52,259 nucleotides of DNA from a phage. The translations under genes and the position numbers were made by a program. This document shows positions 6,713-32,139 of this stretch, piece after piece. Each line of letters starts with the position of its first letter. Within the stretch, counting starts at the first letter, position 1. The notes beneath the pieces are model-generated. The model worked only from the letters and a program-made list of their open reading frames with translations, did no database searches and had not been told where the DNA came from. The stretch lies in assembly GCA_025325205.1 (NCBI GenBank), contig GCA_025325205.1_4770.1. One strand, written 5' to 3'.

Positions 6713-6735
6713 CTTCTAACTGCATTATACAATCC

Positions 6736-7683: not shown

Positions 7684-7744
7684 AATTAAAACTTGGCAAC
7701 TGAATTTCAAAATCATTCGATTTATTATTATCAAGGGTGAGGTT

Positions 7745-10362: not shown

Positions 10363-12912
10363 ATGCTGGAACTTTTTCCTCAAGAAATTAAACAATACGA
10401 ACAGTGGGCTGTCTGCGGTTTCCATCCAGGTACATCATCAGAAAAACAACCTTATGTGTGGGACGATGATTTAGGGGATATGGTCCCACTTCGTAAAGAC
10501 GGCAACGATAAAAAACCGTCTAATTTGCATTTACTAATGTCCTTTGAAGATGCGGAACGTTGTATTCGTTACTATAACGAAATCGGTCATAATCTGCGTT
10601 TAGGTTTCTATCTACTTCCAAGTGATCCGTTCTGTTGTATAGACATGGATATTAAAGACACCATGTCTGAAATGGAAAAGAAAGTTGCTGGTGAGCGATA
10701 TAAGAAGATTGTTGAATCGTTCCACAGTTATACGGAGATTTCCAGAAGTGGTGATGGGTTACACACATGGATTTATTCCATCCCTCAAGCTGGTAAGCGC
10801 CGTGATGGTGTGGAAGTGTATTCCCAGTATCGTTTTATTATCTGTACAGGGGATCACTGGGATATTACTCCGCGCACTGTGTCTGGTGCTCCAGGTAGTG
10901 AAAGCGAAGGGTATATCGCTAATCTCATTCATCAACTTATGTCTGAGATGAGTGAGATTAATGAGTGTGATGGCTTCCAAATGCTGGAACTTACTGAAGA
11001 AGATTTTAGTAACGACCCATATGCAATGGAAGACCAGGATGTCTATATCCAGTTGTGTGAACAAGAAAACGGAACATTGTTTAAGCAGCTATGGGAAGGT
11101 CGTTGGAGAGCTGAAGAAGTTGATACTTCTATCGGTGAACGTTGTTTCCCTTCTCAGTCTGAAGCAGAGTTTGCATTAATTGACTTTCTTTGCTTTAAGA
11201 GTAAGTACAATTTCCAGGTAAGACGTCTGTTCATGTATTCACCAATGAGTAGTCGTTACGATGATTCCCGTCGTCTGCCCGGTGAAAAAATCAAACGTCC
11301 TTATCACCTGGATAGAATGATTCGCAACTATCGCTATGACGCCCATGTTAAATCTATGGGACTTATGCAGATAGTTCAGAATAACGTTAATGCAGCTATA
11401 GAGCGCACGGAAAAACTGCGTCAAGCAACTACACCAGAACGCCCACCTGAAGAAGTGTTGACCACAGATGGTAATTACACTGAGGAGCAAGCGGACGGTT
11501 TAGCCTGGCCTCCGGGCTTTATGGGCGAGGTTGCGCGTAACATGTATAAAGCGAGCTTGTTGCCTATTAAAGACATTAGTATTCTGTCTGCTCTTGCTTT
11601 ATTTAGTGGTATGTGCGGTAAGGCGTGGAACACGGTTACACGAAGTGGTCTGAACAACTACTTTGTATTAATTGCACGTTCTGGTATTGGTAAAGAAGCA
11701 TTTCGCTCTAACATTGAAACAATTCTTTCTCAGGTTTCCAATTATGGCGGTCAGGACGGGCAACAGATATTCGGTATTGAACGTGTTTTAGATACCAGTA
11801 CCTATGCGTCTGATGCTGCATTGCGCAAAGACGTCATAATGGATACGTCTGTTATGTCTTGTGGCTCATCCATTAACTATAAGACTGAAGTCGGTGCGTT
11901 TTTCCGTAACGGTAAGATGGAAGTTGGTAAAGCTAAAGACATTATGGATGAAATGCTTTCCCTTTATGATAAAGGACATTTCTATGCTTTCTCTGGTGGT
12001 TCAAAGCACTCTAGCAAAGATAATACGACCGCTGGTGGTAAAGTCAAGGCGTATAGTTTTGCAGGTGAAACAACACCAGATGAATTTTATGGGAACGTTG
12101 ATGACCGCATGATGTCAAGTGGTTTCATGTCTCGTATTATTGCATGGGAATGTACAGCTAACCGCCCACTCATGAATAAGAGTATGCTCCTGGAATATCC
12201 GGAAGCAATTCTGCGGACTATTGGAGCTATCTATAAACAAGCTGTGCGTATTATGTCAGGGACTGCTCCATGTTATGTTGAAATGGAAGCAGAGGTACAC
12301 GAAGCGTTTGATAACCTTGATAATGTTGTCGCGAAGTTCCTGAATAGCGGTAATGACGGTGAACAGGTACAGGATGAAGTAATCCGTCAGATGTACACAA
12401 GGAAGGCGTTGAAGGTATTGCGTATCGCCTCCCTTCTTGCTGTAGCAGATAACAGTGAGCGTCCTGTTGTTACTATGGAACATTATCGTTGGGCTGAGTC
12501 ATTTATTGATCAGGGTAACGAGCGTTTCTTAGAGAAGCGTAATAGTGGGCTGATTGGGTCTACAGATAGTACCAGTCGTGAGAAAATAATGCTCAACTCT
12601 ATCAAGAAGTTCTTGGATGGGGAAGTTAAAGCTGGTGTGTATAAACGGTTCCCAATGTTTAAGGACGCGTTTATTGTCACACGAAGTGATCTATGCACAG
12701 TATGTCGCCAGTTCAAGGCTTTTAAACAAACAAGAAATGACAACATCTTGCAGGTCATAGACAACACAATTTATGGTTTGATGTCCATGGAAGTTCTTAC
12801 TGAGATGAGGCCAATGGACTTTTCAAGTTTCTTCGGTGCAGAGTTTACACCACCGAGGATGAAATGTTATTTGGTGGACATTGAGAGAATGAACGAAGTT
12901 ATTAAGTTATAA
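10363..12912 (+). CDS. DNA primase-polymerase (archaeo-eukaryotic primase superfamily) with large C-terminal domain
   Basis: AEP motifs in order: CCIDMDIKD (hhhDxD), SRSGDGLHTWIY (sGxGxH), FIICTGDHWD; C-terminal region has only a degenerate P-loop-like SGIGKE, so helicase activity is not supported. Confidence 0.6.
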   Translation: MLELFPQEIKQYEQWAVCGFHPGTSSEKQPYVWDDDLGDMVPLRKDGNDKKPSNLHLLMSFEDAERCIRYYNEIGHNLRLGFYLLPSDPFCCIDMDIKDTMSEMEKKVAGERYKKIVESFHSYTEISRSGDGLHTWIYSIPQAGKRRDGVEVYSQYRFIICTGDHWDITPRTVSGAPGSESEGYIANLIHQLMSEMSEINECDGFQMLELTEEDFSNDPYAMEDQDVYIQLCEQENGTLFKQLWEGRWRAEEVDTSIGERCFPSQSEAEFALIDFLCFKSKYNFQVRRLFMYSPMSSRYDDSRRLPGEKIKRPYHLDRMIRNYRYDAHVKSMGLMQIVQNNVNAAIERTEKLRQATTPERPPEEVLTTDGNYTEEQADGLAWPPGFMGEVARNMYKASLLPIKDISILSALALFSGMCGKAWNTVTRSGLNNYFVLIARSGIGKEAFRSNIETILSQVSNYGGQDGQQIFGIERVLDTSTYASDAALRKDVIMDTSVMSCGSSINYKTEVGAFFRNGKMEVGKAKDIMDEMLSLYDKGHFYAFSGGSKHSSKDNTTAGGKVKAYSFAGETTPDEFYGNVDDRMMSSGFMSRIIAWECTANRPLMNKSMLLEYPEAILRTIGAIYKQAVRIMSGTAPCYVEMEAEVHEAFDNLDNVVAKFLNSGNDGEQVQDEVIRQMYTRKALKVLRIASLLAVADNSERPVVTMEHYRWAESFIDQGNERFLEKRNSGLIGSTDSTSREKIMLNSIKKFLDGEVKAGVYKRFPMFKDAFIVTRSDLCTVCRQFKAFKQTRNDNILQVIDNTIYGLMSMEVLTEMRPMDFSSFFGAEFTPPRMKCYLVDIERMNEVIKL

Positions 12913-12950
12913 AAAAAAAATGGGCGCTATATGCGCCCATTATATTATTC
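12911..12950. terminator. bidirectional rho-independent terminator
   Basis: A-run, hairpin TGGGCGC-tatat-GCGCCCA (12921-12939), T-rich flank; sits between convergent genes 10363-12912 (+) and 12945-13175 (-). Confidence 0.55.
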
Positions 12951-13175
12951 ATGCAATTCTAAGAAACCACATACGACATATTCAAACATTTCATCATAAT
13001 CCGGTGTTGAAAAGTCTCCAACGTGATACTCACCTTTCTCAAACGTAACAACAGTTGAAGAGTTCATGTATGTGTACTTAATCTTGTGAGTTCCGTCTAT
13101 GCAGTTGTGTGAGAATTCCTCTGACTTGTTCATTGCATTTCTGATGTTTCTTTTTACAAGATCTTGGTGAGTCAT
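12945..13175 (-). CDS. hypothetical protein (AT-rich, opposite strand to surrounding block)
   Basis: 76-aa ORF with GCGGAGGA RBS on minus strand and its own candidate promoter. Confidence 0.4.
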   Translation of the reverse strand: MTHQDLVKRNIRNAMNKSEEFSHNCIDGTHKIKYTYMNSSTVVTFEKGEYHVGDFSTPDYDEMFEYVVCGFLELHE

Positions 13176-17128: not shown

Positions 17129-17719
17129 ATGCTCATCACGATAATATCGGATGCGTCGTTCTGTCACCGTACTAAATGTGGAGGCTATGGAATTTGGGTA
17201 GCCTCCAAACGGGGTAAAAAGGCTTTTGGTGGCCCTGCACATGGCCACACGGATAATACCGTAGTCGAATGTATTGCAGTAGCTAACGGTTTATATCATG
17301 GTATAGAAGCTGGACTTATCTACACAAACGACGTTATATTGTTCCAGACGGATTGCAAAGCAGCTATCCATATGTTCGAAGGTAAACGTCCACCGAGAGG
17401 AGAAGAGCAGCAAGTATATAAATGGTTCATGGATACTATTGTCGAGAATAGACTTAGTTTCCAATTTCGTCATGTTAAAGGTCATTCGGGTAGGATGGAT
17501 TCCCGTAGTCTTGCACAAGACAAGTGCGATGAAATTGCGGGTATGCACATGCGAACAGGTAGACGACGCATGGACTACGATAAATTAAAAGTAGATACAG
17601 CAAAATCCGTTATTCCTAAACCGAAGAAATTTAACATTGAGAAACAGCAATCTTGGGTTAGGAAGTTAAAACTTCTTGTTCGGGAACACACAAAGGTAAA
17701 TTTCAATGGCTCGATTTAA
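17129..17719 (+). CDS. RNase H-like nuclease
   Basis: IISDASF ... GGYGIW ... ECIAVANGL ... TDCKAAIHM ... KGHSG: pattern of acidic residues and spacing typical of RNase H fold. Confidence 0.5.
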   Translation: MLITIISDASFCHRTKCGGYGIWVASKRGKKAFGGPAHGHTDNTVVECIAVANGLYHGIEAGLIYTNDVILFQTDCKAAIHMFEGKRPPRGEEQQVYKWFMDTIVENRLSFQFRHVKGHSGRMDSRSLAQDKCDEIAGMHMRTGRRRMDYDKLKVDTAKSVIPKPKKFNIEKQQSWVRKLKLLVREHTKVNFNGSI

Positions 17720-18650
17720 ACCTTTTCTTGCAACAGATTGGGATTCAGCTAAACAGAAATACCCTGTAGGTATCATGCCTAAAATTGACGGCGTTCGTGG
17801 GATGAAACCGTTTGGGGAGCTTGTTGGACGAAGTCTTAAATCTTTTGCAAATAAGCAGGTCGCAAAGGTATTTGGATCTCCCATCTATGATGGTATGGAC
17901 GGTGAGCTTGCGGTTGGGGACGAAACGGACTTTGATTTATGTCGCAAGACAAGTAGTGCAACATCTAAAATTGAAGGTGAATATGTTTGGACGTGGCATG
18001 TGTTCGATTTGTGCGAACCGAATGTTGCACATCTACCGTACAAAGAGCGTTATGATATGCTCAAGAAGTACGTGGACGAATGCCACGCTAACGGCGAGTT
18101 GATGGACGTGAAACTTGTGCCGTTGTATGTGGTCAACAACGAACAAGAACTCCTGGAGTGGGAAAATATTTGGCTCGATATGGGATACGAAGGTGTTATT
18201 ATTCGTGATCTTGAAGCGAAATATAAATGGGGTCGTAGTACGCAACGTGAAGGCGGTTATCTCCGCATTAAACGTTTCACTGATGGTGAAGGCGAGATCA
18301 TTCGTATCATTGAAGGTTGCACCAACGCAAATGAGGCTCAGATTAACGAATTAGGACAGACGTTCCGTTCATCCCATCAGGAAAATATGATTCCAAATGG
18401 TATGGTTGGCTCATTTGATGTACGTGTGCTTACAGTACCAGAAGGCCTTGAAGATCTTATTGAAGTCGGGCAAGAGATGCGTGTAGGTGCTGGTCGTCTT
18501 ACGCACGAAGAACGTAAATATTATTTTGAGCATCCTGATGAATTCATTGGGAAGATTTCTAAATGGAAATTCTTTGCTCACGGTATGAAAGATAAATTGC
18601 GTATTCCTACGCATCAAAGTTTCCGTGATCCAACAGATATTAGTGAATAA
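17706..18650 (+). CDS. ATP-dependent DNA ligase
   Basis: Motif I KIDGVRG (KxDGxR adenylation lysine), DGELAVG, size about 310 aa typical of minimal phage ligases. Confidence 0.75.
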   Translation: MARFKPFLATDWDSAKQKYPVGIMPKIDGVRGMKPFGELVGRSLKSFANKQVAKVFGSPIYDGMDGELAVGDETDFDLCRKTSSATSKIEGEYVWTWHVFDLCEPNVAHLPYKERYDMLKKYVDECHANGELMDVKLVPLYVVNNEQELLEWENIWLDMGYEGVIIRDLEAKYKWGRSTQREGGYLRIKRFTDGEGEIIRIIEGCTNANEAQINELGQTFRSSHQENMIPNGMVGSFDVRVLTVPEGLEDLIEVGQEMRVGAGRLTHEERKYYFEHPDEFIGKISKWKFFAHGMKDKLRIPTHQSFRDPTDISE

Positions 18651-18714: not shown

Positions 18715-19461
18715 ATGCAATTTACAACTACCGCGCAGGCAGTTTTAGACACTGGTGTCAAGATGCTTGTGTATGGTGAATCCGGTATGGGTAAGACCAT
18801 GCTCACAGCAACCCTTCCAAGACCGTTGCTGATTTCTGCAGAGTCCGGGCTTTTGTCTTTAACACCGAATAACATTGCTCGTGTATTTGGTGAAAACAGA
18901 CCAGATATCTGCTACGATATTCCAACCATCACGGTTGAAAATATCCAGGATGTAGAGCAGGCTTATGTTTGGGCGACTAACCCTGCAAACAATCCTGTAG
19001 GTGAAGATGGTTTACCGCGCTTTCAGTCTCTTGCGCTGGATTCACTTACTGAGATTGCTGAAAAGTGCCTTAACAATGCGAAGCGTACTGTGAAAGATCC
19101 GCGTCAGGCTTATGGGGATCTTATTGAGAAGATGCAAACTTTAGTTCGCGCTTTTCGAGATATCCCTGGACTTAACGTGTACATGGCAGCTAAAATGTCC
19201 CGTAACAAGGACGAGTTGACAGGTATTACGTCTTACGGTCCTTCTATGCCTGGTGCAAAATTAGGTCCAGAATTACCATACTTTTTTGACGAAGTGTTCA
19301 AAATTAGTGTTGGTAAAGACCAAAATACTCAAGCAGATTTTCGTTATCTGCTGACCAGACCAGATCTGTCAAATGTATGTAAAGATCGTTCTGGTTCGTT
19401 AGAACAGATGGAATATCCACATCTTGGTGCAATCATTAACAAAATCAAAGGGGTGCAATAA
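18715..19461 (+). CDS. RecA-core ATPase (Sak4-like recombination protein candidate)
   Basis: Walker A VYGESGMGKT, Walker B-like LALDSL; about 250 aa; adjacent SSB-like gene. Confidence 0.5.
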   Translation: MQFTTTAQAVLDTGVKMLVYGESGMGKTMLTATLPRPLLISAESGLLSLTPNNIARVFGENRPDICYDIPTITVENIQDVEQAYVWATNPANNPVGEDGLPRFQSLALDSLTEIAEKCLNNAKRTVKDPRQAYGDLIEKMQTLVRAFRDIPGLNVYMAAKMSRNKDELTGITSYGPSMPGAKLGPELPYFFDEVFKISVGKDQNTQADFRYLLTRPDLSNVCKDRSGSLEQMEYPHLGAIINKIKGVQ

Positions 19462-20384
19462 TGGCCGGTTTAGGAATGCAATTTAACGCTGGACAACACG
19501 CAGAGCGTCAACACAATAGCTTGATGCCCGCTGGTTGGTATGTTGTTCAGATTGTAAACTCTGAAATCAAACCGACTAAAACTCCAGGCGGTGCGCGTCT
19601 GAATCTTCAGTTTAAGATTATGCAGGGTGATTTTGCTGGTCGTGTAATGTTTGGCGGTTACAACGTCAAGAACGCGAACCCTGTCGCTGTACAGATTGCA
19701 ATGGAAGAACTGGCAGAGCTGTCCCGTGCTGTTAAAGTTCCAGTTTGGAACGATACCGAACAACTGCACGGTATTCCGTTCAACCTGAAAGTGAAAGTTC
19801 GTCAGCAACCTGGCTATGAGCCAAACAACGAACCTCAGATTTATCAAGCAATTGATAATATGGAAGGTGTTGTATACGCAACTAAGGCGGACATGGCTAA
19901 CCTGCCTAAATCAACTCCGGCAGCGGCAGCACAGTCTCCAGCATTTGGTGGCGGTGCGTTCGGTGGTACTCAGCAGCCACAGCAGCAGCAACCGCAGCAG
20001 GGTTTCCCTGGTGCATTTGGGCAGCAGCCGCAGCAACAGCAGCAGCAACCTCAGACTCAGGGGTTCCAGCAGCAGCAGCAACAGCAACAACAGCCGCAGC
20101 AGCCGGTACAGCAGCAGCAACCGCAGCAGTCTGGAACAGTTGATTTTAACAGTGCGGCACAATCTCAACCGTGGGCTAATGGTGCGCAGCAGCAGACTCA
20201 GCAGCAACCTAACTGGGCAACTCAGCAGGTACAGCCTGGAGCAGAGCAACCACAAACTCAAGCTCAGAATACTGGTACTGCTAACCATGCAGAACCTGAA
20301 GTCCAGGATGATATCGCTAAAGCAGCTCAGACCAAGACTCCACCGTGGAAACGTTCCACTGAAGGCGATGACGCTGCACAGTAA
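19461..20384 (+). CDS. putative ssDNA-binding protein with Gln/Pro-rich low-complexity linker
   Basis: Globular N-terminal part then QQPQQQQ... tract and acidic C-terminus; position next to Sak4-like ATPase; no OB-fold motif verified. Confidence 0.35.
   Translation: MAGLGMQFNAGQHAERQHNSLMPAGWYVVQIVNSEIKPTKTPGGARLNLQFKIMQGDFAGRVMFGGYNVKNANPVAVQIAMEELAELSRAVKVPVWNDTEQLHGIPFNLKVKVRQQPGYEPNNEPQIYQAIDNMEGVVYATKADMANLPKSTPAAAAQSPAFGGGAFGGTQQPQQQQPQQGFPGAFGQQPQQQQQQPQTQGFQQQQQQQQQPQQPVQQQQPQQSGTVDFNSAAQSQPWANGAQQQTQQQPNWATQQVQPGAEQPQTQAQNTGTANHAEPEVQDDIAKAAQTKTPPWKRSTEGDDAAQ
19971..20130 (+). repeat. CAG/CAA-rich (poly-Gln/Pro) coding microsatellite
   Basis: Runs of cagcagcagcaaccgcagcag read from sequence inside ORF 19461-20384. 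Confidence 0.8.
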
Positions 20385-20403
20385 TTAAAAATCATGTTAT
20401 AAT

Positions 20404-20430
20404 AAAGCTCCTCCGGGAGCTTTATTTTTC
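20404..20430 (+). terminator. rho-independent terminator
   Basis: AAAGCTCC-tccg-GGAGCTTT hairpin followed by ATTTTTC. Confidence 0.6.
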
Positions 20431-20446
20431 TATATAGGATTATGAT

Positions 20447-21397
20447 ATGCCACATTTTTATCCTGCTACTAAGACAATGGAGTTATTCAATGACTGTATT
20501 GAACGAGATCAAGGATCCGCTTACAGAGTATGGCTCGGAAAAGTATTACCGCATATTGAAGACGCATATCGAGAGGGAGATGGCGGATTCCGTTCGCATC
20601 TTGGGATTAGTCTTATCGGGCAAGAATGTAGTAGAGCAATCTTCTACGGATGGAGATGGGCAACTAAACCACACTTTAACGGTAAAACCTTACGTCTATT
20701 CAATCGCGGGCATCTTGAAGAAGGTCGCTTCGTGGCCTTATTACTTACCGCCGGTATGCAAGTCATCCAACAAGACGAAAATGGCAGCCAGTATAGAGTC
20801 AGCTATCTCAACGGGCACTTTGGTTCCGCGATAGATGGTATTGTCATTGGTTGCCCCGACATGCCACAACCTTCTACACCAATCTTAACGGAGATGAAAA
20901 CGCACAATAACGATTCGTTCAAGAAACTTGTCGTTAATGGTGTGATGGAATCCAAATGGGAGCACTATGTTCAGATGCAGGAATACATGTTGTATTATGG
21001 GCTCCCAGCCGCTCTTTATATTGCAGTTAATAAGAACACGGACGAGATTTGGGCAGAGCTTGTACCGTTTGATAAAGAAACAGCAGAACGCTACAAAGAC
21101 CGTGGATTTGTAATTGCACTGGCGGAATGCCCACCACCTAAGATCAATGAAAGTAAATCTTACTATAAATGCAAATGGTGTGACCACAAAGCGGTGTGCC
21201 ATAACAACAAAATGCCTGAAGTTAACTGCCGCACCTGTAAGCACTCTTATCCGCTTGAAGATGGAACCTGGAGATGCGCAATCAAAGTAGCTTCTGCTAC
21301 TGCATACATCACGGATGGAACCGAAGGTGTATTAACGAAGGAAGATCAGATGGCAGCATGTGGTCAATACGAAGCAGCAGATTATTACGGTGAGTAA
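20447..21397 (+). CDS. Cas4/RecB-like PD-(D/E)XK exonuclease with cysteine cluster
   Basis: AIDGIV ... TEMKT (D...ExK); N-terminal Cys (QECSRA) plus C-terminal CKWCDHKAVC suggest a Cas4-type Fe-S site. Confidence 0.55.
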   Translation: MPHFYPATKTMELFNDCIERDQGSAYRVWLGKVLPHIEDAYREGDGGFRSHLGISLIGQECSRAIFYGWRWATKPHFNGKTLRLFNRGHLEEGRFVALLLTAGMQVIQQDENGSQYRVSYLNGHFGSAIDGIVIGCPDMPQPSTPILTEMKTHNNDSFKKLVVNGVMESKWEHYVQMQEYMLYYGLPAALYIAVNKNTDEIWAELVPFDKETAERYKDRGFVIALAECPPPKINESKSYYKCKWCDHKAVCHNNKMPEVNCRTCKHSYPLEDGTWRCAIKVASATAYITDGTEGVLTKEDQMAACGQYEAADYYGE

Positions 21398-23401
21398 ATG
21401 TTCAAACTACGTGATTATCAGCAAGAAGCTGTAAACAGTACATTGCGCTATTTCATCAAGTATGGTGAAAAGTCAGGAAATCCTGTTATCTTGTTGCCTA
21501 CAGGGACTGGTAAGTCCCTTGTAATTGCTGGTCTATTAAAGACAATTCACGATAATTGGGGTAGTACCCGCATGATGGTAATTACTCACGTAAAAGAATT
21601 GATAGACCAGAACCACGATAAATTTAAGAAGTTGTGGCCTGAAGCACCGACTGGTATTTATAGTGCTGGTATGGGTCGCAAGGATAAGAATGCAATGATA
21701 ACGTTCGCAGGTATTCAGTCTGTTGCAAAACAAGCTAAATACTTCGAGGACGTTGATATTATTATAGTTGACGAATGTGACCTTATTAGCCCAAATCAGC
21801 AAACAAGTTATCAGAAGTTCTTTGCGCACATTCGTGAAAAGAACCCATATCTAAAGATTATCGGTCTTACTGCTACGAGTTGGCGTCTTGGTTTTGGTTC
21901 TATTATCAAAGATGATTATGCGCCTAACGCTTTATTTGATGAAATCGTATTTAACGCATGTACCGTAGAGTGCTTCAACTGGTTCATTGATGAAGGTTAT
22001 CTTGTTCCGTTAGTACCACGTAAAACAAAGAAAGAGTATGATGTAAGTGGTGTTCATACTCGAGGCGGTGAGTTCATTGAAAGTGAGCTTCAAAAGGTTG
22101 TAAACGATCCTGATGTAACTCGCCATTTATTAGATGATGCGATTAGTATTGCGGAAGAAGAGAATAGAATGAGTTGGCTTGTCTTTTGTGCTGGTGTAGA
22201 CCATGCAAAAGATGTCAAAGACTACCTCAACGAGCGCGGTATTAGTTGTGAAGTTGTAACTGGTGATACACCGAAAGCCTTGCGTGACCAGTATCTTATT
22301 GATTTTAAAGCTGGTCGTTTACAGGCAATAGCAAACAACAACGTATTGACGACAGGCTTTGACCATCCGGGTCTTGACTTGATAATTGGTATGCGCCCGT
22401 CCCAATCTTCCCGCCTATGGGTTCAGATGCTTGGACGTGGTACTCGACCTGATTATGCAGATGGTTTTGATTTGACCACAACGGAAGGTCGTTTGCAAGC
22501 TATCTCCGCTTCGCATAAACAGAACTGTCTTGTACTAGACTATGCAGGTAATACAAGACGTCTTGGACCTATTAACGACCCTGTAATTCCTAAGCGTCCA
22601 GGGCAGAAAGGAAAGTCCGCTGCACCTGTTAAAGAATGCCCGGTATGTAAAACCTGGAACCATGCGTCGGTTCGCTATTGTGGTGGGTTAAAACCATTCG
22701 ATACAAGCGGTATGTCCCATGAAGAAATACTCTATCTTCAAGGGTTAGGATATACCATTACAAATAATAAAGCGTGTCGTGCTGGTTATTGCGGTCATGA
22801 GTTTACTTTTGAGAAGAAACTGATGGCGAGTGCTAGTACGAAGGCTATTATCAAGAATGATTTGCCAGTCACTGAAGTGTTGAAAGTTGATATGGTGAGT
22901 TACTATCGTCACGAGAACAGGGGTGACCGTTCTAAGCCACCAACACTTCGTGTAGATTATCTTTGTGGGTCACAAACTATTCAACAATATATTTGTCTGT
23001 TTCATACTGGCTTTGCAGGCAAGAAAGCGCGTAACTGGTGGCGCGAGCATTGCAGCTTGGCAATCCCAGCCAACATTGACGAAGCCCTCAATGTGGTCAG
23101 CCAGCTCCGTGTACCGACGCACATTTATGTCAACTTGAAGGGTAAGTTCCCTGAAGTGTTGAATAGTTGTTATGACGGTAGTGAGTTCGGTAAGAAAGAA
23201 GCAACCAACGAACGTCCGGTTGTACAAATCGCAGCAATGAATGGCTTGTCCCAGTTTGGTGGAAGTTATACGAATAAGTTTGATGAAGACGAGCAGACTG
23301 ATTCTCGTACGACAGTATTGCATTCTACGTCTAATCAACCTATTCTTACTGGTAACGGTAAAGAACTACCACCAGATTTTGATGACGACATTCCATTTTG
23401 A
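21398..23401 (+). CDS. SF2 DNA helicase with zinc-finger and SSB-like acidic C-terminal tip
   Basis: Walker A LLPTGTGKS, Walker B IIVDECD, TATSWR, QMLGRGTR; CPVCKTWNHASVRYC; last residues PPDFDDDIPF. Confidence 0.75.
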   Translation: MFKLRDYQQEAVNSTLRYFIKYGEKSGNPVILLPTGTGKSLVIAGLLKTIHDNWGSTRMMVITHVKELIDQNHDKFKKLWPEAPTGIYSAGMGRKDKNAMITFAGIQSVAKQAKYFEDVDIIIVDECDLISPNQQTSYQKFFAHIREKNPYLKIIGLTATSWRLGFGSIIKDDYAPNALFDEIVFNACTVECFNWFIDEGYLVPLVPRKTKKEYDVSGVHTRGGEFIESELQKVVNDPDVTRHLLDDAISIAEEENRMSWLVFCAGVDHAKDVKDYLNERGISCEVVTGDTPKALRDQYLIDFKAGRLQAIANNNVLTTGFDHPGLDLIIGMRPSQSSRLWVQMLGRGTRPDYADGFDLTTTEGRLQAISASHKQNCLVLDYAGNTRRLGPINDPVIPKRPGQKGKSAAPVKECPVCKTWNHASVRYCGGLKPFDTSGMSHEEILYLQGLGYTITNNKACRAGYCGHEFTFEKKLMASASTKAIIKNDLPVTEVLKVDMVSYYRHENRGDRSKPPTLRVDYLCGSQTIQQYICLFHTGFAGKKARNWWREHCSLAIPANIDEALNVVSQLRVPTHIYVNLKGKFPEVLNSCYDGSEFGKKEATNERPVVQIAAMNGLSQFGGSYTNKFDEDEQTDSRTTVLHSTSNQPILTGNGKELPPDFDDDIPF

Positions 23402-25316: not shown

Positions 25317-25345
25317 AAGGGGCATTTACTGCCCCTTTGTTATCT
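25317..25345 (+). terminator. rho-independent terminator
   Basis: GGGGCA-ttta-CTGCCCC hairpin followed by TTTGTTATCTT. Confidence 0.55.
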
Positions 25346-25360
25346 TACCCCGAGGTTCAA

Positions 25361-26125
25361 ATGTTTGCACAAGCCATTATCGCCCACCACTGGGCTCAAG
25401 CCAAATTTGGAAATCATATGAAAATTATTAATACTCAGGAACCTGAGAAGTTAGTTCGTGAACGTGGTATTCTTGATGTACATTCCATTTTTCATACCAT
25501 TCAAGGCGAAGGCCCATTTTGTGGTCAACCTGCCGTATTCGTTCGATTAGCTGGTTGTAACCTGCAATGCCCAGGTTGCGATACAAACTATACGTCCAAT
25601 CGTAATAAAATGAGTCACAGTGATATTTGGCAAGAAATCGTTCGTGTCACTGGTGAAGCCAAGACTAAATTAGTTGTCATTACTGGTGGCGAACCTTTCC
25701 GTCAACCTGAAGTTGTTAGTTTTATCAACTACCTTATTGATATGAAAGGATACCGTGTACAGGTTGAAACTAACGGGACTATGCCTATCCCGCGTGAACT
25801 CAACTATAGTTGTGTGGTAGTATGTAGTCCTAAGGCAGCAAAGATTCACCCTAGCGTTTCCGCTCGAGCAAATGCTTTCAAATATGTAATGAAAAGTGGA
25901 AACGTCAACGAGGAAGATGGATTACCGTTGCAGGCACTGGATCACCGTGCAACACCATTTATCGCACGTCCGCCTGTACACTTTAAAGGTAATATTTATC
26001 TTCAGCCTATGGATGAACAAGACGACGATGCTAATAAAGCAAACGCTCAAGCTGTCGTTAAATACGCAATGAAGCATAATTATATCGTGCAATTGCAGGT
26101 TCATAAGTATTTAGGTGTAGAATAA
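25361..26125 (+). CDS. queE: 7-carboxy-7-deazaguanine synthase (radical SAM, QueE-like)
   Basis: GEGPFCG ... LAGCNLQCPGCDT (CxxxCxxC radical-SAM cluster motif), VITGGEP; start chosen at ATG 25361 after GAGG. Confidence 0.7.
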   Translation: MFAQAIIAHHWAQAKFGNHMKIINTQEPEKLVRERGILDVHSIFHTIQGEGPFCGQPAVFVRLAGCNLQCPGCDTNYTSNRNKMSHSDIWQEIVRVTGEAKTKLVVITGGEPFRQPEVVSFINYLIDMKGYRVQVETNGTMPIPRELNYSCVVVCSPKAAKIHPSVSARANAFKYVMKSGNVNEEDGLPLQALDHRATPFIARPPVHFKGNIYLQPMDEQDDDANKANAQAVVKYAMKHNYIVQLQVHKYLGVE

Positions 26126-26203
26126 AGTTATACATATTTGAAAACGCGCGGATGGTCAGCGTGCTGAAAGATACAATGTGTTCAACTAATAAGGTAAATT
26201 ATT

Positions 26204-26965
26204 ATGATCAAATATGTCCAATTACTTGGTGAGATTGTTCCGGAAGATGTATTGAATAAGTGCCTGTTCGATGAAGACGGGTTTGTAAAACATTATGTAG
26301 ATACACCTTCCCAGTTTGCATCTCACTCGGCTCTTGGATTTGTAATTCGAGCTGGATATGCAGTGGATGTGTTGAACGACATGAGTCCTACAGTCACTGT
26401 TTTTGTTGAAGGTATGGACGTACATGATCTTATGAATTTAAAGACCGTTTATAACACGCATGTGACACCACCACGTAATGCACTTTACAAATGGCGTATC
26501 AATACTTCTGTTAGTAGAATCCAAAAACCAGCAGAAGAAGCGGAAGCGGATGCCAAGAAGTACACGACATCTACTCAGAAACTAGCTGGTATGATGGAGG
26601 ATGTACTTACGAGCGCCTTTAAAGTTGATCGTAACAAAGAAGGTGAGCCAGAAGTATTCATTGATGAAGCATTAATTAAGAAAGATCATATCCAGGAGAT
26701 TAAAGCTCCACGTCCGAATAAATATATGCGCAAAATTAAAACTTTTGAATCGCATGATATTAACGGTAGCCCGATTGAAATTGATGTATGGGTTGACGTG
26801 TACGACGTAATTAAAGCATTCAATGTAACCAGTGGGCCCATGCAACATGCACTGAAGAAAGTGCTGTGTGCTGGTGAGCGCGGTCATAAAGACTTGCTGA
26901 AAGACCTCAACGACATCATTGCATCCGTTGAGCGTGAAATTGAAATGGTTAAGGAAGGTAATTAA
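26204..26965 (+). CDS. hypothetical protein embedded in the 7-deazaguanine module
   Basis: 253-aa ORF between queE and gat-queC; no motif recognised. Confidence 0.45.
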   Translation: MIKYVQLLGEIVPEDVLNKCLFDEDGFVKHYVDTPSQFASHSALGFVIRAGYAVDVLNDMSPTVTVFVEGMDVHDLMNLKTVYNTHVTPPRNALYKWRINTSVSRIQKPAEEAEADAKKYTTSTQKLAGMMEDVLTSAFKVDRNKEGEPEVFIDEALIKKDHIQEIKAPRPNKYMRKIKTFESHDINGSPIEIDVWVDVYDVIKAFNVTSGPMQHALKKVLCAGERGHKDLLKDLNDIIASVEREIEMVKEGN

Positions 26966-26966
26966 T

Positions 26967-28382
26967 ATGTGCTCTATCTTTGGTGTTATTACTAACGGTC
27001 AACCTGAAAGTCTTATCATTCGTAACGATATCAACGATCTCATTAAAGCTAGTGTCAACCGTGGTCGTGATGGTCTTGGTGTACGCTTTACGCATGGTGA
27101 CCACAGTATGCACCCGCAACGTATCGTCAGCGTCGGTAAAGAAACATCGATGGAACGTCTTGTTAAAGTGGGGCGCATTGCATCTCACGCTGGAGCTATT
27201 GGCAGCTTCACGATGATTGGTAACGCTCGTGCTGAACCGACTACAGAATGGGTCGTTGACAAGAGCGAGTGGGACCAGCAACCATATCACCTCGATGGTT
27301 GGACTATTGTTCATAACGGTACTATTGCGAACGATAAAGACCTTCGCACCTATGCACTACAAACTAAGATCGATAGTGCTGCAATTGTTGAACAGTTAGC
27401 AGAATGCACACTTTCAAATGATGAAACATGTTTAACTGACTTTAACTACCTGTATAGTGTGTTTCACGAAGTTGTTCGTAAACTGAAAGGGAGTTACGCA
27501 ATTCTTGCGACACATGATTCATTCCCTGGATGCGTGTTTGCAGCATGTAACTATCGTCCGATTTGGATTGGCCAGACTAATACTGGTATGTATTTCGCCA
27601 GCCAGGAAGATATGTTACCGACCAGCGCAACTAAGCGGATGTTGAAACCTTACTCATGTAGTGTGGTTACAGCTACAGATGTACAAAATGAAGTTGATCT
27701 TATTCCAAATAAGCAGACTCAACGTGCGTTAGTTGTCGCCAGTGGTGGTATGGACAGTACGGTGGCAGCTCAGATGTGCAAGTCCAATGGTTTAGATGTC
27801 ACTCTCATTAACTTCCAGTATGGTTGTCGTGCAGAAACTAATGAGTTAAAGGCTATTCGTAAGATTGCGGAAGTAATGGAAGTTCCGTTAGTTGAGTTCC
27901 CAATCCCAATTTACGATAAGAAAGACAGCCCGTTATTTGATCAAGACGCTGCAATTGCTGGTGGCGAAGAAGGTGCTGAGTTTGCCCATGAATGGGTTCC
28001 AGCTCGTAACCTTGTAATGCTTTCTGTTGCTACTGCATACGCAGAAGCTAACGGTTTCGACTATATTGTTCTTGGTAACAACTTAGAAGAAGCTGGAGCC
28101 TATCCGGACAACGAGCCTGAGTTTATTAACCGCTTTAATCAGGTGCTACCATTCGCTGTAGGCGACGGTAAGCGCGTTGAAGTGCTCATGCCAGTAGGTA
28201 ACTTAATGAAGCACGAAATTGTCGCTACAGGCCTACGTTTAGGGGCCCCGCTTGAGCACACCTGGAGCTGTTACCGTAACGGGGATTTGCATTGTGGTAC
28301 TTGTGGCCCTTGCATGATGCGTCGGACTGCGTTTAATATTAATAACGCACAAGAAGTTATTAAATACGAAAGCGAGGAATAA
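26967..28382 (+). CDS. queC: glutamine amidotransferase-QueC fusion (7-cyano-7-deazaguanine synthase-like with N-terminal class-II GATase)
   Basis: Begins MCSIFGV (Ntn Cys after Met, asparagine-synthetase-like); central ALVVASGGMDSTVAAQMC PP-loop (SGGxDS); C-terminal WSCYRNGDLHCGTCGPCMMR Zn-Cys cluster typical of QueC. Confidence 0.7.
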   Translation: MCSIFGVITNGQPESLIIRNDINDLIKASVNRGRDGLGVRFTHGDHSMHPQRIVSVGKETSMERLVKVGRIASHAGAIGSFTMIGNARAEPTTEWVVDKSEWDQQPYHLDGWTIVHNGTIANDKDLRTYALQTKIDSAAIVEQLAECTLSNDETCLTDFNYLYSVFHEVVRKLKGSYAILATHDSFPGCVFAACNYRPIWIGQTNTGMYFASQEDMLPTSATKRMLKPYSCSVVTATDVQNEVDLIPNKQTQRALVVASGGMDSTVAAQMCKSNGLDVTLINFQYGCRAETNELKAIRKIAEVMEVPLVEFPIPIYDKKDSPLFDQDAAIAGGEEGAEFAHEWVPARNLVMLSVATAYAEANGFDYIVLGNNLEEAGAYPDNEPEFINRFNQVLPFAVGDGKRVEVLMPVGNLMKHEIVATGLRLGAPLEHTWSCYRNGDLHCGTCGPCMMRRTAFNINNAQEVIKYESEE

Positions 28383-28383
28383 A

Positions 28384-28917
28384 ATGGGTTACACTGTTAT
28401 TCGTTCACATGAGATTTGCGCTGGTCATCGTGTTGTAGGTCATGAAAGTAAGTGTCAACACTTTCACGGTCACAACTATAAGTTCCATTTTAAAGTTGCA
28501 CCAAAGAAAACATTGTCGGAAGGTTACGTCAAATCTGTAAGTGGATTTGCTCTGAATGGCTCTCTGGACGATGTGGGCCGCGTTATAGACTTTAGTGTGG
28601 TTAAAACTACGCTGTGTCAGTGGTTGGAAGATAATTGGGATCATAAGTTCCTGCATTGGGAACATGACAGCGTAATTAATTCACTTATTATTGTTGCATC
28701 AACTAAGTTCGCGCGTGAAAATAATCTAGTAAAGGACGAAGATTATGATCCTTTCGTTAATTCACTGGTATCTTTACCGTTCAACCCAACTGCGGAAAAC
28801 TTAGCTGCATATATGGTTGACGTAATTGGTCCTCAATTACTTGACCAGTATGGTGTTGAACTGGTAGAATGCACCATTGAAGAAACGTCCAAATGCCATG
28901 TTAACTATTGCAAATGA
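28384..28917 (+). CDS. queD: 6-carboxy-5,6,7,8-tetrahydropterin synthase (QueD-like)
   Basis: CAGHRVVGHESKCQHFHGHNY contains the CxxxHGH zinc/catalytic motif of the PTPS/QueD family. Confidence 0.7.
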   Translation: MGYTVIRSHEICAGHRVVGHESKCQHFHGHNYKFHFKVAPKKTLSEGYVKSVSGFALNGSLDDVGRVIDFSVVKTTLCQWLEDNWDHKFLHWEHDSVINSLIIVASTKFARENNLVKDEDYDPFVNSLVSLPFNPTAENLAAYMVDVIGPQLLDQYGVELVECTIEETSKCHVNYCK

Positions 28918-28943
28918 TTGACCACACAAGGAAACTGTAAACC

Positions 28944-29558
28944 ATGAACGAATTTACAAAGATGACAAACAGAGCAGAGATTTCGCACAGCATTGAAAAG
29001 ATTTTAAAGTTGATTGAAGGTGGGGATGATCTGCGTGAAGGCTTGGTTGAAACTCCATCACGAGTCGCTAAAGCATTTGAAACATGGTTCAGCGGTTACG
29101 ATGTTGATATTGCATCCTTGTTCAAGACCTTTGAAGATGGTGGGGAAAACTGCAATGAAATGGTTATTGTTCGTGATATTCCTGTTTACAGTCATTGCGA
29201 ACACCATATGGCCCCTATTATCGGTCACGCTGTCGTGGGGTATGTTCCTAACGGTCGCATCGTGGGGCTTAGTAAACTGTCTCGCGTGGTTGATGCTTTT
29301 AGCCGTCGCTTGCAAGTCCAGGAGCGTTTAACTAACCAGATTGCGGATGCTATCGTAGAACACTTAGACCCGAAAGCTGTGTGTGTTTACATCGATGCAA
29401 AACATATGTGTATGGAGTCGCGCGGTGTCAAGCAAGTTTGCGGAAGCTCAACCATTACTAAAGCATTCCGTGGGCGTACTGCATTGGGCGATGGTGTATT
29501 ACCTGATGTGACGGGTGACACATGGCGTCGGGAATTTCTTGAAGCGTGTAAGAAGTAA
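28944..29558 (+). CDS. folE: GTP cyclohydrolase I (FolE)
   Basis: VYSHCEHHMAPIIGHAVVGYVPNGRIVGLSKLSRVVDAFSRRLQVQERLT: conserved CEHH zinc motif and GLSKL...QVQER segment. Confidence 0.8.
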   Translation: MNEFTKMTNRAEISHSIEKILKLIEGGDDLREGLVETPSRVAKAFETWFSGYDVDIASLFKTFEDGGENCNEMVIVRDIPVYSHCEHHMAPIIGHAVVGYVPNGRIVGLSKLSRVVDAFSRRLQVQERLTNQIADAIVEHLDPKAVCVYIDAKHMCMESRGVKQVCGSSTITKAFRGRTALGDGVLPDVTGDTWRREFLEACKK

Positions 29559-29592
29559 CTGATTTGCGAATCATACATTATCTTTAATATAA

Positions 29593-29618
29593 TAAGCGCC
29601 TACGGGCGCTTATTTGTT
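29593..29618 (+). terminator. rho-independent terminator (possibly partial) between folE and dpdA
   Basis: AGCGCC-tacg-GGCGCT hairpin followed by TATTTGTT. Confidence 0.5.
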
Positions 29619-29627
29619 AGGTGAACA

Positions 29628-30581
29628 ATGCACAGAGAAGATATCAATTATACCTTTCAGATTTATATGGCTGCCGTATATACGAACAGCTATAAACCAG
29701 GAATGAACCGCTATGTTAAACTCAACGAACAAGAAAAACGTGTTGTCGAAAATATTCCAAACATTCTTGAATCCTGGCACTACGTTGGAAAGCAATCATA
29801 TGTTGATGCCATGCGTGCCGATGGGGCCAAGATATTCCTCGACTCCGGGGCGTTCTCAGCTTACACTTTGGGAGTTACGTTATCAGTTAAAGAATACTGC
29901 GATTACATCCAACGAAACATAGATATCATTCGTGTAGAAGATGGTTCACTTATGGCGTCCGTACTCGATGGTATCGGTGATCCACTTCAAACATGGCGTA
30001 ACCAGGAAGAGATGGAAGCCAGAGGTGTAAGACCTTTACCATGCTTCCACGCGGGTGAACCTTTTGAATACCTGGACCATTATGTACGAAATTATGAGTA
30101 TATCACGCTCGGTGGTCTTGTTGGAGCAAGTACGCAACAACTTCAGATATGGCTGGACAGGGTATGGGATAAACACCTTGTGGATGGTAGTGGACGCGCT
30201 AAAATTAAAGTTCACGGATTTGGTATTACATCCCGTCCACTTATGGAGCGTTACCCGTGGTACTCCTGTGACTCATCTTCCTGGATCCAATCCGCGGCGT
30301 TCGGTGCTATTGAAACGCCTAAATGGGGACCAATGCAGGTATCAGAAAAGTCCCCGTCACGTCACTATCAAGGGCAACATATCTGTAATCTTTCAGAAAT
30401 AGAACAGAACAACGTTCTACGCTACTTAGAGGAGTCAGGTTTCACATACGAGCGACTTTCAACGATATATGAATCACGAGCTGCATACAATTTATGGGCG
30501 TATGGTGTGGTCAACGCTATGATTCTTGCTAACCACAATGGGAAGTTCAACGAACGTCTTCAGGATTTATTTGACGAGTAA
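29628..30581 (+). CDS. dpdA: DNA-guanine transglycosylase (TGT-like, DpdA family) candidate
   Basis: 317 aa; KIFLDSGAFS resembles the TGT catalytic-Asp motif (DSGGFQ); last gene of the preQ0 pathway cluster; start uncertain (weak RBS). Confidence 0.55.
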   Translation: MHREDINYTFQIYMAAVYTNSYKPGMNRYVKLNEQEKRVVENIPNILESWHYVGKQSYVDAMRADGAKIFLDSGAFSAYTLGVTLSVKEYCDYIQRNIDIIRVEDGSLMASVLDGIGDPLQTWRNQEEMEARGVRPLPCFHAGEPFEYLDHYVRNYEYITLGGLVGASTQQLQIWLDRVWDKHLVDGSGRAKIKVHGFGITSRPLMERYPWYSCDSSSWIQSAAFGAIETPKWGPMQVSEKSPSRHYQGQHICNLSEIEQNNVLRYLEESGFTYERLSTIYESRAAYNLWAYGVVNAMILANHNGKFNERLQDLFDE

Positions 30582-30589: not shown

Positions 30590-31582
30590 ATGGATTTACT
30601 TGATGCTTTAAAGTTTGTTCAGGGTTCTGTAGCTAAGAAAGAACTCCAGGAAGGTTTAACTCACTTCCGTATTGTTGATGGTACTGTTCGCGGGTTCAAC
30701 GGAACTATTTCATTGTGTAGTCCAGTACCACTGAACATTGACTGTACACCGAAAGCCGAACCGATGCTCAAGGCTATTGCAGCATGTGACGAAGCTGTAC
30801 AGATGACAATGTTAGCGAACGGTAAGTTGAGCATTAAGTCTGGTGGCTTTAAGGTCAGTGTAGACACTCTTCAGAAACCAACTGCGCACGTAGAGCCAGA
30901 AGGAACAATTCACGAAATAGACGGTCAGCTTTTTCTCAACGGTTTAAGCCGCGTAACGCCGTTTATAAGCGACGATGCTTCCCGCCCGTGGTCTTGCGGC
31001 GTGCTGGTAAAACAGGGCAGCATGTACGCAACCAACAACGCTAGTATTATACAATATTGGTTCGGTGCTGTATTCCCTGTCGATTGTGTTGTGCCACGTA
31101 TGGCCATCAAAGAATTATTGCGTATTAAAAAGCCACCAGTAAGAATTCAATGTACAGATACCAGTATGACATTTCACTACGAAGACGGTTGCTGGTTGCG
31201 TACCCAATTGCTGGAATTAAAGTGGCCCAACATTGACAAGATAATCGAGCGTACAGAAAAGGGGTCTGACGTCTATACGCTTGATACTGAGCTTTTTAAC
31301 TGCTTAGAGAAAATAAAACCGTTCTGTGAACGTGATGGGCGTATCTACATGGAAAATGGTGTTGTGCGCACCCATTACAACGAGCTGGATGGTGCTAGTG
31401 CAATGTTCCGTGAATCTAAGTCAATTGGCGTGTATAATATAGATCTCATTATGCAGTTGAAAGGACTTGCAACGGACTGGGATGCCTCTCGTTTCAATGA
31501 AAAGGACGAAAGGGGTCTTTCAACTCCTATTATTTTTTATGGTGAAAATCTACGTGGGGTAATTGTAGGATTTCGTCTATGA
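30590..31582 (+). CDS. DNA polymerase sliding clamp (beta-clamp/DnaN-like)
   Basis: FISDDASRPWSCGVLVKQG...YATNNASII resembles the beta-clamp domain-II signature (F-x-S-x-DE-x-RP-x-L-x-GVL ... ATDG-RLA); N-terminal GTVRGFNGTISL like the clamp GTD strand; about 330 aa. Confidence 0.5.
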   Translation: MDLLDALKFVQGSVAKKELQEGLTHFRIVDGTVRGFNGTISLCSPVPLNIDCTPKAEPMLKAIAACDEAVQMTMLANGKLSIKSGGFKVSVDTLQKPTAHVEPEGTIHEIDGQLFLNGLSRVTPFISDDASRPWSCGVLVKQGSMYATNNASIIQYWFGAVFPVDCVVPRMAIKELLRIKKPPVRIQCTDTSMTFHYEDGCWLRTQLLELKWPNIDKIIERTEKGSDVYTLDTELFNCLEKIKPFCERDGRIYMENGVVRTHYNELDGASAMFRESKSIGVYNIDLIMQLKGLATDWDASRFNEKDERGLSTPIIFYGENLRGVIVGFRL

Positions 31583-32139
31583 GAAAAGCATTGCCGTTAC
31601 CGCCGTACACTTATCTTCATGAGTGCTTCGACTATAACGAAATTACTGGTGTCCTCACATGGAAAGTGAGGCCCTCACATCATTTTAAATCCGAAAGAGC
31701 TCGAAAGATCGCAAACACACTATTTTCTGGAAAACAAGCTGGAAATGTTGTCACATGTAGTGGTAAGAAATACTTACAAGTTACAATAGATAGAAAATTA
31801 TATCTTGTTCATAGAATTTGTTATAAAATGTATTATAACAAAGAACCGACTGTAATCGATCATGACGATGGAAATGGACTTCACAACTGGATATTAAACT
31901 TAAATGATGGTACAATGTCCGACAATATGAAAAACAGGAAGATGTTAGAATGCAATTCCACTGGTGTTACTGGTGTGAGTCTGACTAAATTAGGGATGTG
32001 GAATGCACATATAATGGTTGGATATAAGGGTTATAATCTATATACAGGCCCTGATTTGTTTGAAGCCTGTTGTGCTAGAAAATCCGCTGAACTATTATAT
32101 GGTTTTAATAAAAATCACGGTAAAGAGAGAAATCTATGA
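31579..32139 (+). CDS. HNH homing endonuclease with AP2-type DNA-binding domain
   Basis: IDHDDGNGLHNWILNLN (HNH core) and GVTGVSLTKLGMWNAHIMVGYKGYNLYTGPDLFEACCARKSAEL (AP2-like); AT-rich relative to flanks; ATGA overlaps on both sides. Confidence 0.7.
   Translation: MRKALPLPPYTYLHECFDYNEITGVLTWKVRPSHHFKSERARKIANTLFSGKQAGNVVTCSGKKYLQVTIDRKLYLVHRICYKMYYNKEPTVIDHDDGNGLHNWILNLNDGTMSDNMKNRKMLECNSTGVTGVSLTKLGMWNAHIMVGYKGYNLYTGPDLFEACCARKSAELLYGFNKNHGKERNL

Follow-up and report, generated by a model that had tools for sequence, protein, structure and literature searches.

Does the large replication gene of a 9g-like phage encode a primase alone, or a primase joined to a motor that opens DNA for it? 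The gene in question lies on the + strand at 10363..12912 of a 52,259-nucleotide (nt) stretch of phage DNA (GenBank assembly GCA_025325205.1, contig GCA_025325205.1_4770.1), called here the window. An earlier note on this DNA, made by a model from the letters and a list of open reading frames (ORFs), described the product as an archaeo-eukaryotic primase (AEP) of the primase-polymerase type. It saw in the remainder only a degenerate P-loop, and considered helicase activity not supported. The 849-amino-acid (aa) ORF is present as described in the ORF list, running from ATG to stop, and the primase assignment held. For the larger, C-terminal part we reached a different view: with a probability of about 75%, the gene encodes a bifunctional primase-helicase that primes for the family-B polymerase of the phage.

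10363..12912, + strand: complete primase-helicase gene, stop codon included (849 aa)

What this analysis established is homology and fold for each half, conservation of the catalytic residues, and the genomic context. In the structural model, the architecture is that of an AEP Prim/Pol domain (residues 1-175), a helix-bundle domain (HBD, residues ~212-300), a helical linker, and a DUF3987/MCM-like AAA+ module with a winged-helix-like end (residues 361-849).

The genome is a member of Nonagvirus (Queuovirinae; phages 9g, JenP2, JenK1 and SE1). The gene itself is already known and annotated, and is of an ordinary kind: it is the replication primase of 9g-like Escherichia coli phages. The sole point that may be new is a family-wide GK[E/D] P-loop in the motor half.

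The N-terminal half is a Prim/Pol of the NrS-1 type

10363..10887, + strand: AEP Prim/Pol catalytic domain, NrS-1 type, residues ~1-175 (PDB phmmer, profile, Foldseek)
10642..10650, + strand: AEP motif I, D94-M-D96, the metal-binding acidic pair in C-I-D94-M-D96 (conservation, NrS-1 alignment)
10741..10764, + strand: nucleotide-binding loop and AEP motif II, S127-R-S129-G-D-G132-L-H134 (conservation, NrS-1 alignment)
10798..10851, + strand: AEP motif III region, R146-R-D-G-V-E151-V-Y-S-Q-Y-R157-F158-I-I-C-T162-G163 (conservation, NrS-1 alignment)
10996..11262, + strand: HBD, residues ~212-300 (hhalign, Pfam matches of relatives, model)
11299..11430, + strand: long single helix joining both halves, residues 313-356 (DSSP helix, predicted local distance difference test score (pLDDT) 64-87)

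As a single sequence, the protein matched the NrS-1 N300 structures in PDB by phmmer (6a9w, 6k9a and 7rr3/4; residues 29-167, E~4e-9). With a profile of 106 homologs, whose alignment is also the source of all counts given here out of 106, the NrS-1 N300 match strengthened to E~5e-20, and the best PDB match was PriRep5 of SaPI5 (7ola; E=8.6e-35, profile positions 7-263). BLASTP aligned the protein to NrS-1 with 32% identity over 148 aa (E=1e-13). In hhalign, the family profile matched NrS-1 gp28 with a probability of 98.9% over gp28 residues 10-248, that is, the catalytic domain and the HBD. The full-length AlphaFold model had a mean pLDDT of 91.2, with values >90 across residues 1-180, and ranks 1 to 6 of its Foldseek matches in PDB were all NrS-1 N300 (probability 1.00, E~5e-10). 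The PrimPol-type N-terminus proposed in the earlier note is borne out by these profile, hhalign and Foldseek matches: domain searches do support an AEP fold. The PriCT and D5_N domains that it had named for checking gave no Pfam match at E<=1. Two other Pfam matches were set aside: AEP-TOTE, which stayed below its cutoff (23.1 bits against 27) and only echoes the AEP fold, and TarS_linker (E=0.036), which is noise.

The three AEP motifs occur in order in the N-terminal third, as the earlier note had seen, and are invariant or nearly so in the 106 homologs, far beyond chance. Both aspartates of motif I, D94 and D96, were found in 106/106 homologs and are the counterparts of D78 and D80 in NrS-1 D78-L-D80. 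The stretch from S127 to H134 aligned to NrS-1 S108-P-S110-G-D-G-L-H, so that S127 and S129 correspond to S108 and S110, and H134 to the motif II histidine; S127, G132 and H134 were invariant, and S129 was present in 98/106. In NrS-1, S108 and S110 bind the gamma-phosphate of the dNTP (PMC8718748). The motif III region, with E151, Y153, R157, T162 and G163 invariant, aligned to NrS-1 L-E139-V-Y-E-S-G-R-Y146. E151 is the counterpart of E139, which, to judge from the alignment, would be a catalytic residue. NrS-1 Y146 is critical and is Phe in other PrimPols, and mutation in NrS-1 showed the importance of S108, S110 and Y146 (PMC8718748). A zinc finger is absent from the aligned active-site loop of both proteins.

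The catalytic domain is followed in both proteins by an HBD (NrS-1: 6a9w, 7rr3; PF22763). Relatives of our protein at ~30% identity matched Pfam PF22763, the NrS-1 polymerase HBD, which the query protein alone did not reach at E<=1; its model is all-helical over residues 212-298. A helix-bundle domain of this kind is needed for primer initiation, and de novo primer synthesis is predicted here by analogy. The linker helix at residues 313-356 has the lowest confidence and conservation (mean majority fraction 0.36, compared with 0.61 in the ATPase core).

The C-terminal half carries a DUF3987/MCM-like AAA+ module

11443..11652, + strand: N-terminal subdomain of the helicase-like module, with the motif W-P383-P384-G385..G388, residues 361-430 (invariant columns, model)
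11653..12192, + strand: AAA+ ATPase core, MCM-like / DUF3987, residues 431-610 (Pfam, Foldseek, conservation)
11674..11697, + strand: Walker A, non-canonical, A438-R-S-G-I-G443-K444-E445 (between strand 433-437 and helix 446-461)
11866..11889, + strand: Walker B strand ending in E509, S-S-I-N-Y-K-T-E509, without the canonical Asp (strand 502-507 in the model)
11989..12048, + strand: candidate pre-sensor-1 beta-hairpin, residues 543-562 (short strands 543-561 between helix 524-536 and strand 563-570)
12049..12078, + strand: putative sensor 1 strand, A-Y-S565-F-A-G568-E569-T-T571-P572 (strand 563-570 in the model)
12121..12135, + strand: putative arginine-finger motif, G587-F-M-S590-R591, MCM-type 'SRF' (between helix 581-586 and strand 592-596)
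12193..12462, + strand: AAA+ lid domain with sensor 2 candidates R675, R680 and K684, residues 611-700 (lid helices)
12463..12909, + strand: C-terminal helical region and winged-helix-like end, residues 701-849 (model pattern)

Pfam DUF3987 (PF13148) matched residues 562-711 above its gathering cutoff (29.2 bits against 27, E=6.7e-7). The match is partial, covering profile positions 196-347 of 364, with the Walker A half outside the local match; the DUF3987 matches of homologs were as good as E=2.8e-14. When residues 361-849 were modelled alone, the pLDDT was 93.9 and the predicted template modelling score (pTM) 0.91. The best 50 PDB matches of this model in Foldseek were 48 MCM subunits and 2 ORC chains, the MCM matches having a probability of 1.00 and E-values from 8e-7. 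Fold matches of the C-terminal half in BFVD were DUF3987 proteins, many of them fused to AEP or TOPRIM/DnaG primases, and some were named replicative helicase. The ATPase core was the most conserved segment, with a mean majority fraction of 0.61 compared with 0.53 in the AEP domain.

DUF3987 has been linked to MCM, of helicase superfamily (SF) 6, and predicted to be a replicative helicase (PMC4889955; also PMC5862659). That prediction was based on its frequent fusion or adjacency to AEP or DnaG primases and on a winged-helix end (PMC4889955). The PriCT-DUF3987 protein AgaPH forms oligomers and acts as a 5'-3' helicase dependent on ATP or dATP, an activity abolished by mutations in Walker A or Walker B (PMC11724360).

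For conservation at greater depth, residues 361-849 were compared by phmmer, exhaustively, with 1.84 billion cluster representatives. At E<=1e-3 the helicase-module family comprised 2003 clusters (50% identity), of which 231 reached E<=1e-30. The query and the best 149 representatives, mutually <=50% identical, form the sample of 150 used below. Among these 149 closest representatives, 31 were only 390-600 aa long and lacked an AEP domain, as stand-alone modules; some of them may be truncated contigs.

The motifs expected of an AAA+ module could be placed along the model. Invariant columns in the subdomain at residues 361-430 were P383, P384, G385, G388, P401, G416 and G419 (pLDDT 96-98). In the hairpin region G546 was found in 105/106 homologs, S550 was invariant and K552 was found in 77/106; by comparison with MCM and SF3 helicases, this hairpin is a candidate DNA-contacting element. 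In the sensor 1 strand S565, G568 and T571 were invariant, and position 569 was Glu in 99 and Asp in 7 of 106. G587, S590 and R591 were invariant, with R591 in 150/150 of the wider sample. The lid helices lie at 614-632, 643-662, 672-679 and 681-696 in the model; R675, R680 and K684 were invariant, and R680 was found in 150/150. The arginine-finger and sensor roles given to S590-R591, T571, R675 and R680 are putative, being read from position in the predicted secondary structure. Residues 758-848 follow the pattern H-H-E-H-H-H-E-H-E (pLDDT 85-97), which fits a winged helix-turn-helix (wHTH); a C-terminal wHTH has been reported for DUF3987 proteins (PMC4889955).

The remainder of the protein is thus more than a P-loop-like string, having a DUF3987 match, an MCM-like model and candidates for every AAA+ motif. 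The view that helicase activity is not supported has to be given up as well: the protein has a 490-residue DUF3987/MCM-like module in which K444, E509, R591 and R680 are kept in at least 149 of 150 sequences. By analogy with the characterised and predicted members of its family, the module would be the fork helicase.

Some of the same evidence would also fit a role mainly as an origin-binding initiator or a nucleotide switch, resembling ORC/Cdc6 or the SaPI Rep proteins, in which the AAA+ and winged-helix half positions the primase and does not act as a processive fork helicase. ORC1/Cdc6 chains are among the significant fold matches, the C-terminal end is winged-helix-like, and 2.6 kb upstream there is non-coding DNA that is AT-rich and carries repeats. 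PriRep5, which gave the best PDB profile match to the N-terminal half, is an initiator-helicase (PMC9371898), and the altered Walker A and B sites could slow hydrolysis as in switch ATPases. We consider this role unlikely to be the main one. MCM accounts for 48 of the 50 fold matches, whereas the ORC matches have template modelling (TM) scores of only ~0.2; features of ring translocases are seen in the hairpin-like insert before sensor 1 and in the 'SRF' arginine finger acting in trans; and the sole assayed DUF3987 protein unwinds DNA (PMC11724360). The initiator and fork-helicase roles are not mutually exclusive.

A P-loop with an acidic residue after the lysine

Residues 440-445 (nt 11680-11697) read SGIGKE, the string named in the earlier note. 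The canonical Walker A pattern, GxxxxGK[S/T], was not found, as Ser/Thr is replaced by Glu/Asp. At the Walker B site (hhhhDE) the catalytic Glu is kept, and the preceding Asp is replaced by Thr, or by Gly in most relatives. G443 and K444 were invariant (106/106 and 150/150). Position 445 was Glu in 96 and Asp in 10 of the 106 homologs, and in the 150 sequences was Glu in 129, Asp in 17, Ser in 3 and Asn in 1. E509 was found in 106/106 homologs and in 149/150 of the wider sample. Position 508 before it, Thr in the query, was Gly in 113, Ser in 20 and Asp in 5 of the 150. With Glu or Asp after the lysine in 146/150 sequences, the P-loop does not look like the product of decay that the word degenerate had implied.

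More distant proteins gave an indication of the order of these changes. GKE together with DE was found in remote homologs from Vibrio phage 1.030.O and Sinorhizobium phage AP-16-3, and GKT together with DE in another remote homolog, gp076 of Rhizobium phage RHEph06. YfjI, the canonical DUF3987 protein of E. coli K-12, has AESGERKS and SDEAG at the two Walker sites. Because remote homologs combine GKE with DE, the acidic P-loop residue appears to be old and selected, and the Walker B Asp to have been lost later in the clade. K444, E509, R591 and R680 are fixed at this depth, as they would not be in a site that had become functionless.

These counts bear directly on a reading in line with the earlier note, namely that the protein is a primase-polymerase only, with the C-terminal two-thirds a catalytically dead scaffold and the fork unwound by the SF2 helicase at 21398..23401. 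The replacement of the Mg2+-binding Ser/Thr by E445 and of the Walker B Asp by T508 would agree with it, as would the SF2 helicase gene nearby and the literature on phage 9g, which says simply 'primase' (PMC4276943, PMC5567051). We regard it as very unlikely, since four catalytic positions are kept in at least 149 of 150 diverged sequences in what is the most conserved segment, the acidic P-loop residue (146/150) is selected and not drifting, and the fold is MCM-like. In addition, the SF2 helicase gene has a Cas4-like nuclease on one side and an AAA_24/DUF669 pair on the other, which would be a typical recombination or repair context.

One-for-one compensation of the lost Walker B Asp by the acidic P-loop residue was considered. 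Among the 106 homologs K-E pairs with G/S/T and K-D mostly with D-E, but GKE stands with a normal D-E in remote homologs, and K-D occurs also with G in the 150-sequence sample. Simple compensation is therefore not supported; the pattern is also confounded by phylogeny.

Literature searches found no paper on the GK[E/D] P-loop variant and no assayed member. NrS-1's helicase domain, whose P-loop GKQGTGKG has no Ser/Thr, hydrolyses (d)NTPs and unwinds DNA (PMC7102993). GK[E/D] occurs neither there nor in AgaPH. As a tentative suggestion, which we hold to be possible but somewhat less than probable, the GK[E/D] P-loop could set apart a large lineage of MCM-like phage primase-helicases by a distinct catalytic chemistry, with a carboxylate replacing the Ser/Thr hydroxyl as Mg2+ ligand and, in most members, the Walker B Asp. 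If so, the metal or nucleotide preference could change, or the motor could become a slow switch; either would be new for AAA+ enzymology.

Proposed action of the primase-helicase

In the bifunctional reading that we favour, the AAA+ half would form a ring, probably a hexamer, in which hydrolysis of nucleoside triphosphates would drive the opening of DNA or translocation along it. K444 would bind the phosphates, E509 would be the catalytic base, and R591 would be an arginine finger acting in trans; E445 would probably take over Mg2+ coordination from the usual Ser/Thr. The tethered Prim/Pol domain and HBD would lay short primers on the exposed single strand. These would be extended by the family-B polymerase (32136..34109) with the processivity factor (30590..31582), and the fragments would be finished by the RNase H and the ligase.

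Several observations weigh against this scheme. The protein lacks both the Ser/Thr that binds Mg2+ and the Walker B Asp, so that hydrolysis could be slow or absent, and the GK[E/D] P-loop has no assayed precedent in the literature searched, the activity being predicted by analogy. The TM-scores to MCM are modest (0.35-0.42 by query length, and 0.55 on a chain of the MCM C-terminal domain only). The ORC/Cdc6 chains among the fold matches allow for a switch or initiator role, and a separate SF2 helicase is encoded in the same replication block.

Comparison with known primase-helicases

The homology with NrS-1 gp28 ends after the HBD (gp28 residue 248 in hhalign). Beyond it, gp28 has a head (PF22761), an SF3-like DUF5906 domain (PF19263) and a tail (PF22762), all three matched by gp28 and none by the query in Pfam, whereas our protein has the DUF3987/MCM-like module. 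In both proteins the primase half is joined to an ATPase of the ring type whose P-loop lysine is followed by a non-canonical residue. NrS-1 uses its enzyme as a replicase, whereas the present phage has a separate family-B polymerase.

PriRep5 of SaPI5, whose structure (7ola) gave the best PDB profile match for the AEP and HBD half, shares the overall logic of an AEP primase, a hexameric ATPase and a C-terminal DNA-binding domain (PMC9371898), the ring being a prediction in our case. PriRep5 has an SF3-like ATPase whose closest counterpart is the NrS-1 helicase (PMC9371898), and the C-terminal halves of the two proteins have no sequence match.

With the MCM proteins (SF6), the module has in common the AAA+ core and, as candidates, the pre-sensor-1 hairpin, the 'SRF' arginine finger, the lid and a C-terminal winged helix (here winged-helix-like). 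It differs in that sequence identity is only ~10-14% (TM 0.35-0.42), the MCM N-terminal OB/zinc domain is absent, Walker A and B are altered, and it is fused to a primase.

Among DUF3987 helicases, the arginine-finger motif GF-x-x-R and the lid align with YfjI (CP4-57, E. coli), which reads G-F-F-A-R. The hhalign comparison of the family profile with the single YfjI sequence was weak (probability 1%, E=0.048) and was used only to locate this GFxxR motif. YfjI has a K-S Walker A and a D-E Walker B, whereas the present clade has K-[E/D] and mostly G-E. Fusion to a primase, typical of the DUF3987 family (PMC4889955, PMC5862659), is found here as well. AgaPH, in contrast, is a separate polypeptide with PriCT, a domain not found in the present protein by Pfam.

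GKE-type DUF3987 modules were also seen in other fusions. NVP1030O_63 of Vibrio phage 1.030.O (490-2742 of locus L005) is joined to Prim-Pol and PriCT_2, and its record calls it only 'coil containing protein'; in Sinorhizobium phage AP-16-3 (379-2733 of locus L006) the module is joined to Pfam Prim-Pol. As GKE-type modules are joined to other AEP or TOPRIM primases, each half can be exchanged as a module, and this again speaks for a motor coupled to a primase.

The replication block

The gene sits in a rightward early block together with the following genes.

Early block: dUTPase (JenP2 annotation)
17129..17719: RNase H
17706..18650: ATP-dependent ligase
18715..23401: conserved four-gene block of an AAA_24 ATPase, a DUF669 protein, a Cas4-like PD-(D/E)XK nuclease and an SF2 helicase
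21398..23401: the SF2 helicase, 667 aa (ResIII and Helicase_C)
25337..30581: 7-deazaguanine (deoxyarchaeosine) cluster of QueE-like, 253-aa protein, Gat-QueC (487 aa), QueD-like, GTP cyclohydrolase and DpdA-like transglycosylase
30590..31582: processivity factor (phrog_947)
31579..32139: 186-aa ORF between the processivity factor and the DNA polymerase
32136..34109: DNA polymerase, 657 aa (phrog_1252, E=1.4e-228)

The separate SF2 helicase and the family-B polymerase that the earlier note had listed are both present. The polymerase gene was recognised by its phrog_1252 match and by a match to Sulfolobus PolB1 (1s5j) over residues 413-535 only (E=1.4e-8); its product had no Pfam-A match. By these sequence matches it appears to be a very divergent family-B enzyme. 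The 9g paper mentions two polymerase subunits (PMC4276943).

The N-terminal half of our protein is homologous to the self-priming replicase of NrS-1 (PMC7102993, PMC8718748), and the Prim/Pol could in principle be the main replicative DNA polymerase here too, both starting and elongating chains. This is very improbable, the least favoured of the readings considered. The phage has a DNA polymerase of its own, a processivity factor, an RNase H and a ligase, a complete toolkit for Okazaki fragments, whereas in the NrS-1 record no annotated DNA polymerase was seen other than gp28.

Because the neighbours of the SF2 helicase gene are nuclease and recombinase-like genes, its context suggests a role in recombination or fork processing and repair, and not as the fork helicase. 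The replication-block genes scanned, which are only part of the window, included no further candidate for a ring helicase. The deoxyarchaeosine DNA-modification cluster is complete and embedded in the replication block.

Annotation in related phages

The gene matched 18 Nonagvirus genomes at 93-96% nucleotide identity, and Nonagvirus records label it DNA primase or DNA primase/helicase. Its product was 99.6% identical in amino acids to JenP2 AKA61012.1 ('DNA primase/helicase') and matched PHROG 3022 'DNA primase' end to end (residues 2-836, E=3.3e-245); NCBIfam gave no match to the protein. The original 9g paper and a later one list this gene as primase (PMC4276943, PMC5567051). In 9g, JenP2, JenK1 and SE1 (PHROG 3022) it is the same gene in the same early replication-block position, with no difference of substance. 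Only the annotation differs, some records having 'hypothetical protein' or 3-4 coding sequences (CDS; SE1, HdK1).

These split records were seen in SE1 and SE1Kor (NC_042025.1 / KY926791.1, 30337-32888) and in HdK1 (MK373794.1, 54694-57260), each with three or four CDS in place of the gene. The DNA of all three still aligns over the full length at 94-96% identity. The splits are probably sequencing or assembly frameshifts, or real pseudogenisation. BFVD holds SE1Kor fragments of 331 and 349 aa, in keeping with the split CDS annotation.

Non-coding features near the gene

12919..12941, no strand assigned: bidirectional intrinsic-terminator-like hairpin directly after the stop, AATGGGCGC-loop-GCGCCCATT

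This hairpin has a perfect 9-bp GC-rich stem, preceded by an A-run and followed by a T-rich tail, and separates the primase-helicase gene from a convergent small ORF (12945..13175, - strand). The record of a relative, MT682705.1, annotates terminators at the same place. A sigma-70 promoter scan around the gene found 19 sites, compared with 15.7±4.9 in shuffled sequence, and thus no excess.

Upstream, ~1 kb at 6700-7745 has no JenP2-annotated gene and no ORF >84 aa. At 6700-7200 the + strand is strongly enriched in C (GC skew -0.35 to -0.53), and 7300-7700 is very AT-rich (26-29% GC) with several inverted repeats. A tandem 29-nt repeat lies at 7518/7547 and a 27-nt repeat at 7614/7664. Lying 2.6 kb upstream of the primase-helicase gene, this stretch is a candidate for an origin or for a regulatory role. 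Rfam found nothing meaningful in this non-coding kilobase (best E=0.18, far below the gathering score).

At 4000-4073 there are three direct 21-nt repeats, TACCTGGTATTTYCNGCRC-like, with a spacing of 26-27 nt, which resemble iterons or operators. By position relative to the JenP2 map, they are probably near the divergent early/late intergenic region.

Implications

The annotation of this gene should read 'DNA primase/helicase (AEP Prim/Pol-HBD + DUF3987)' and not primase alone. A P-loop without Ser/Thr should not be scored as dead before its conservation has been checked. The conserved GK[E/D] variant is a cheap and well-defined target for mutational ATPase work in an easily grown E. coli phage. 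The 9g-like phages, with their deoxyarchaeosine-modified DNA, gain an obvious candidate for the fork helicase, and the SF2 helicase need not fill that role.

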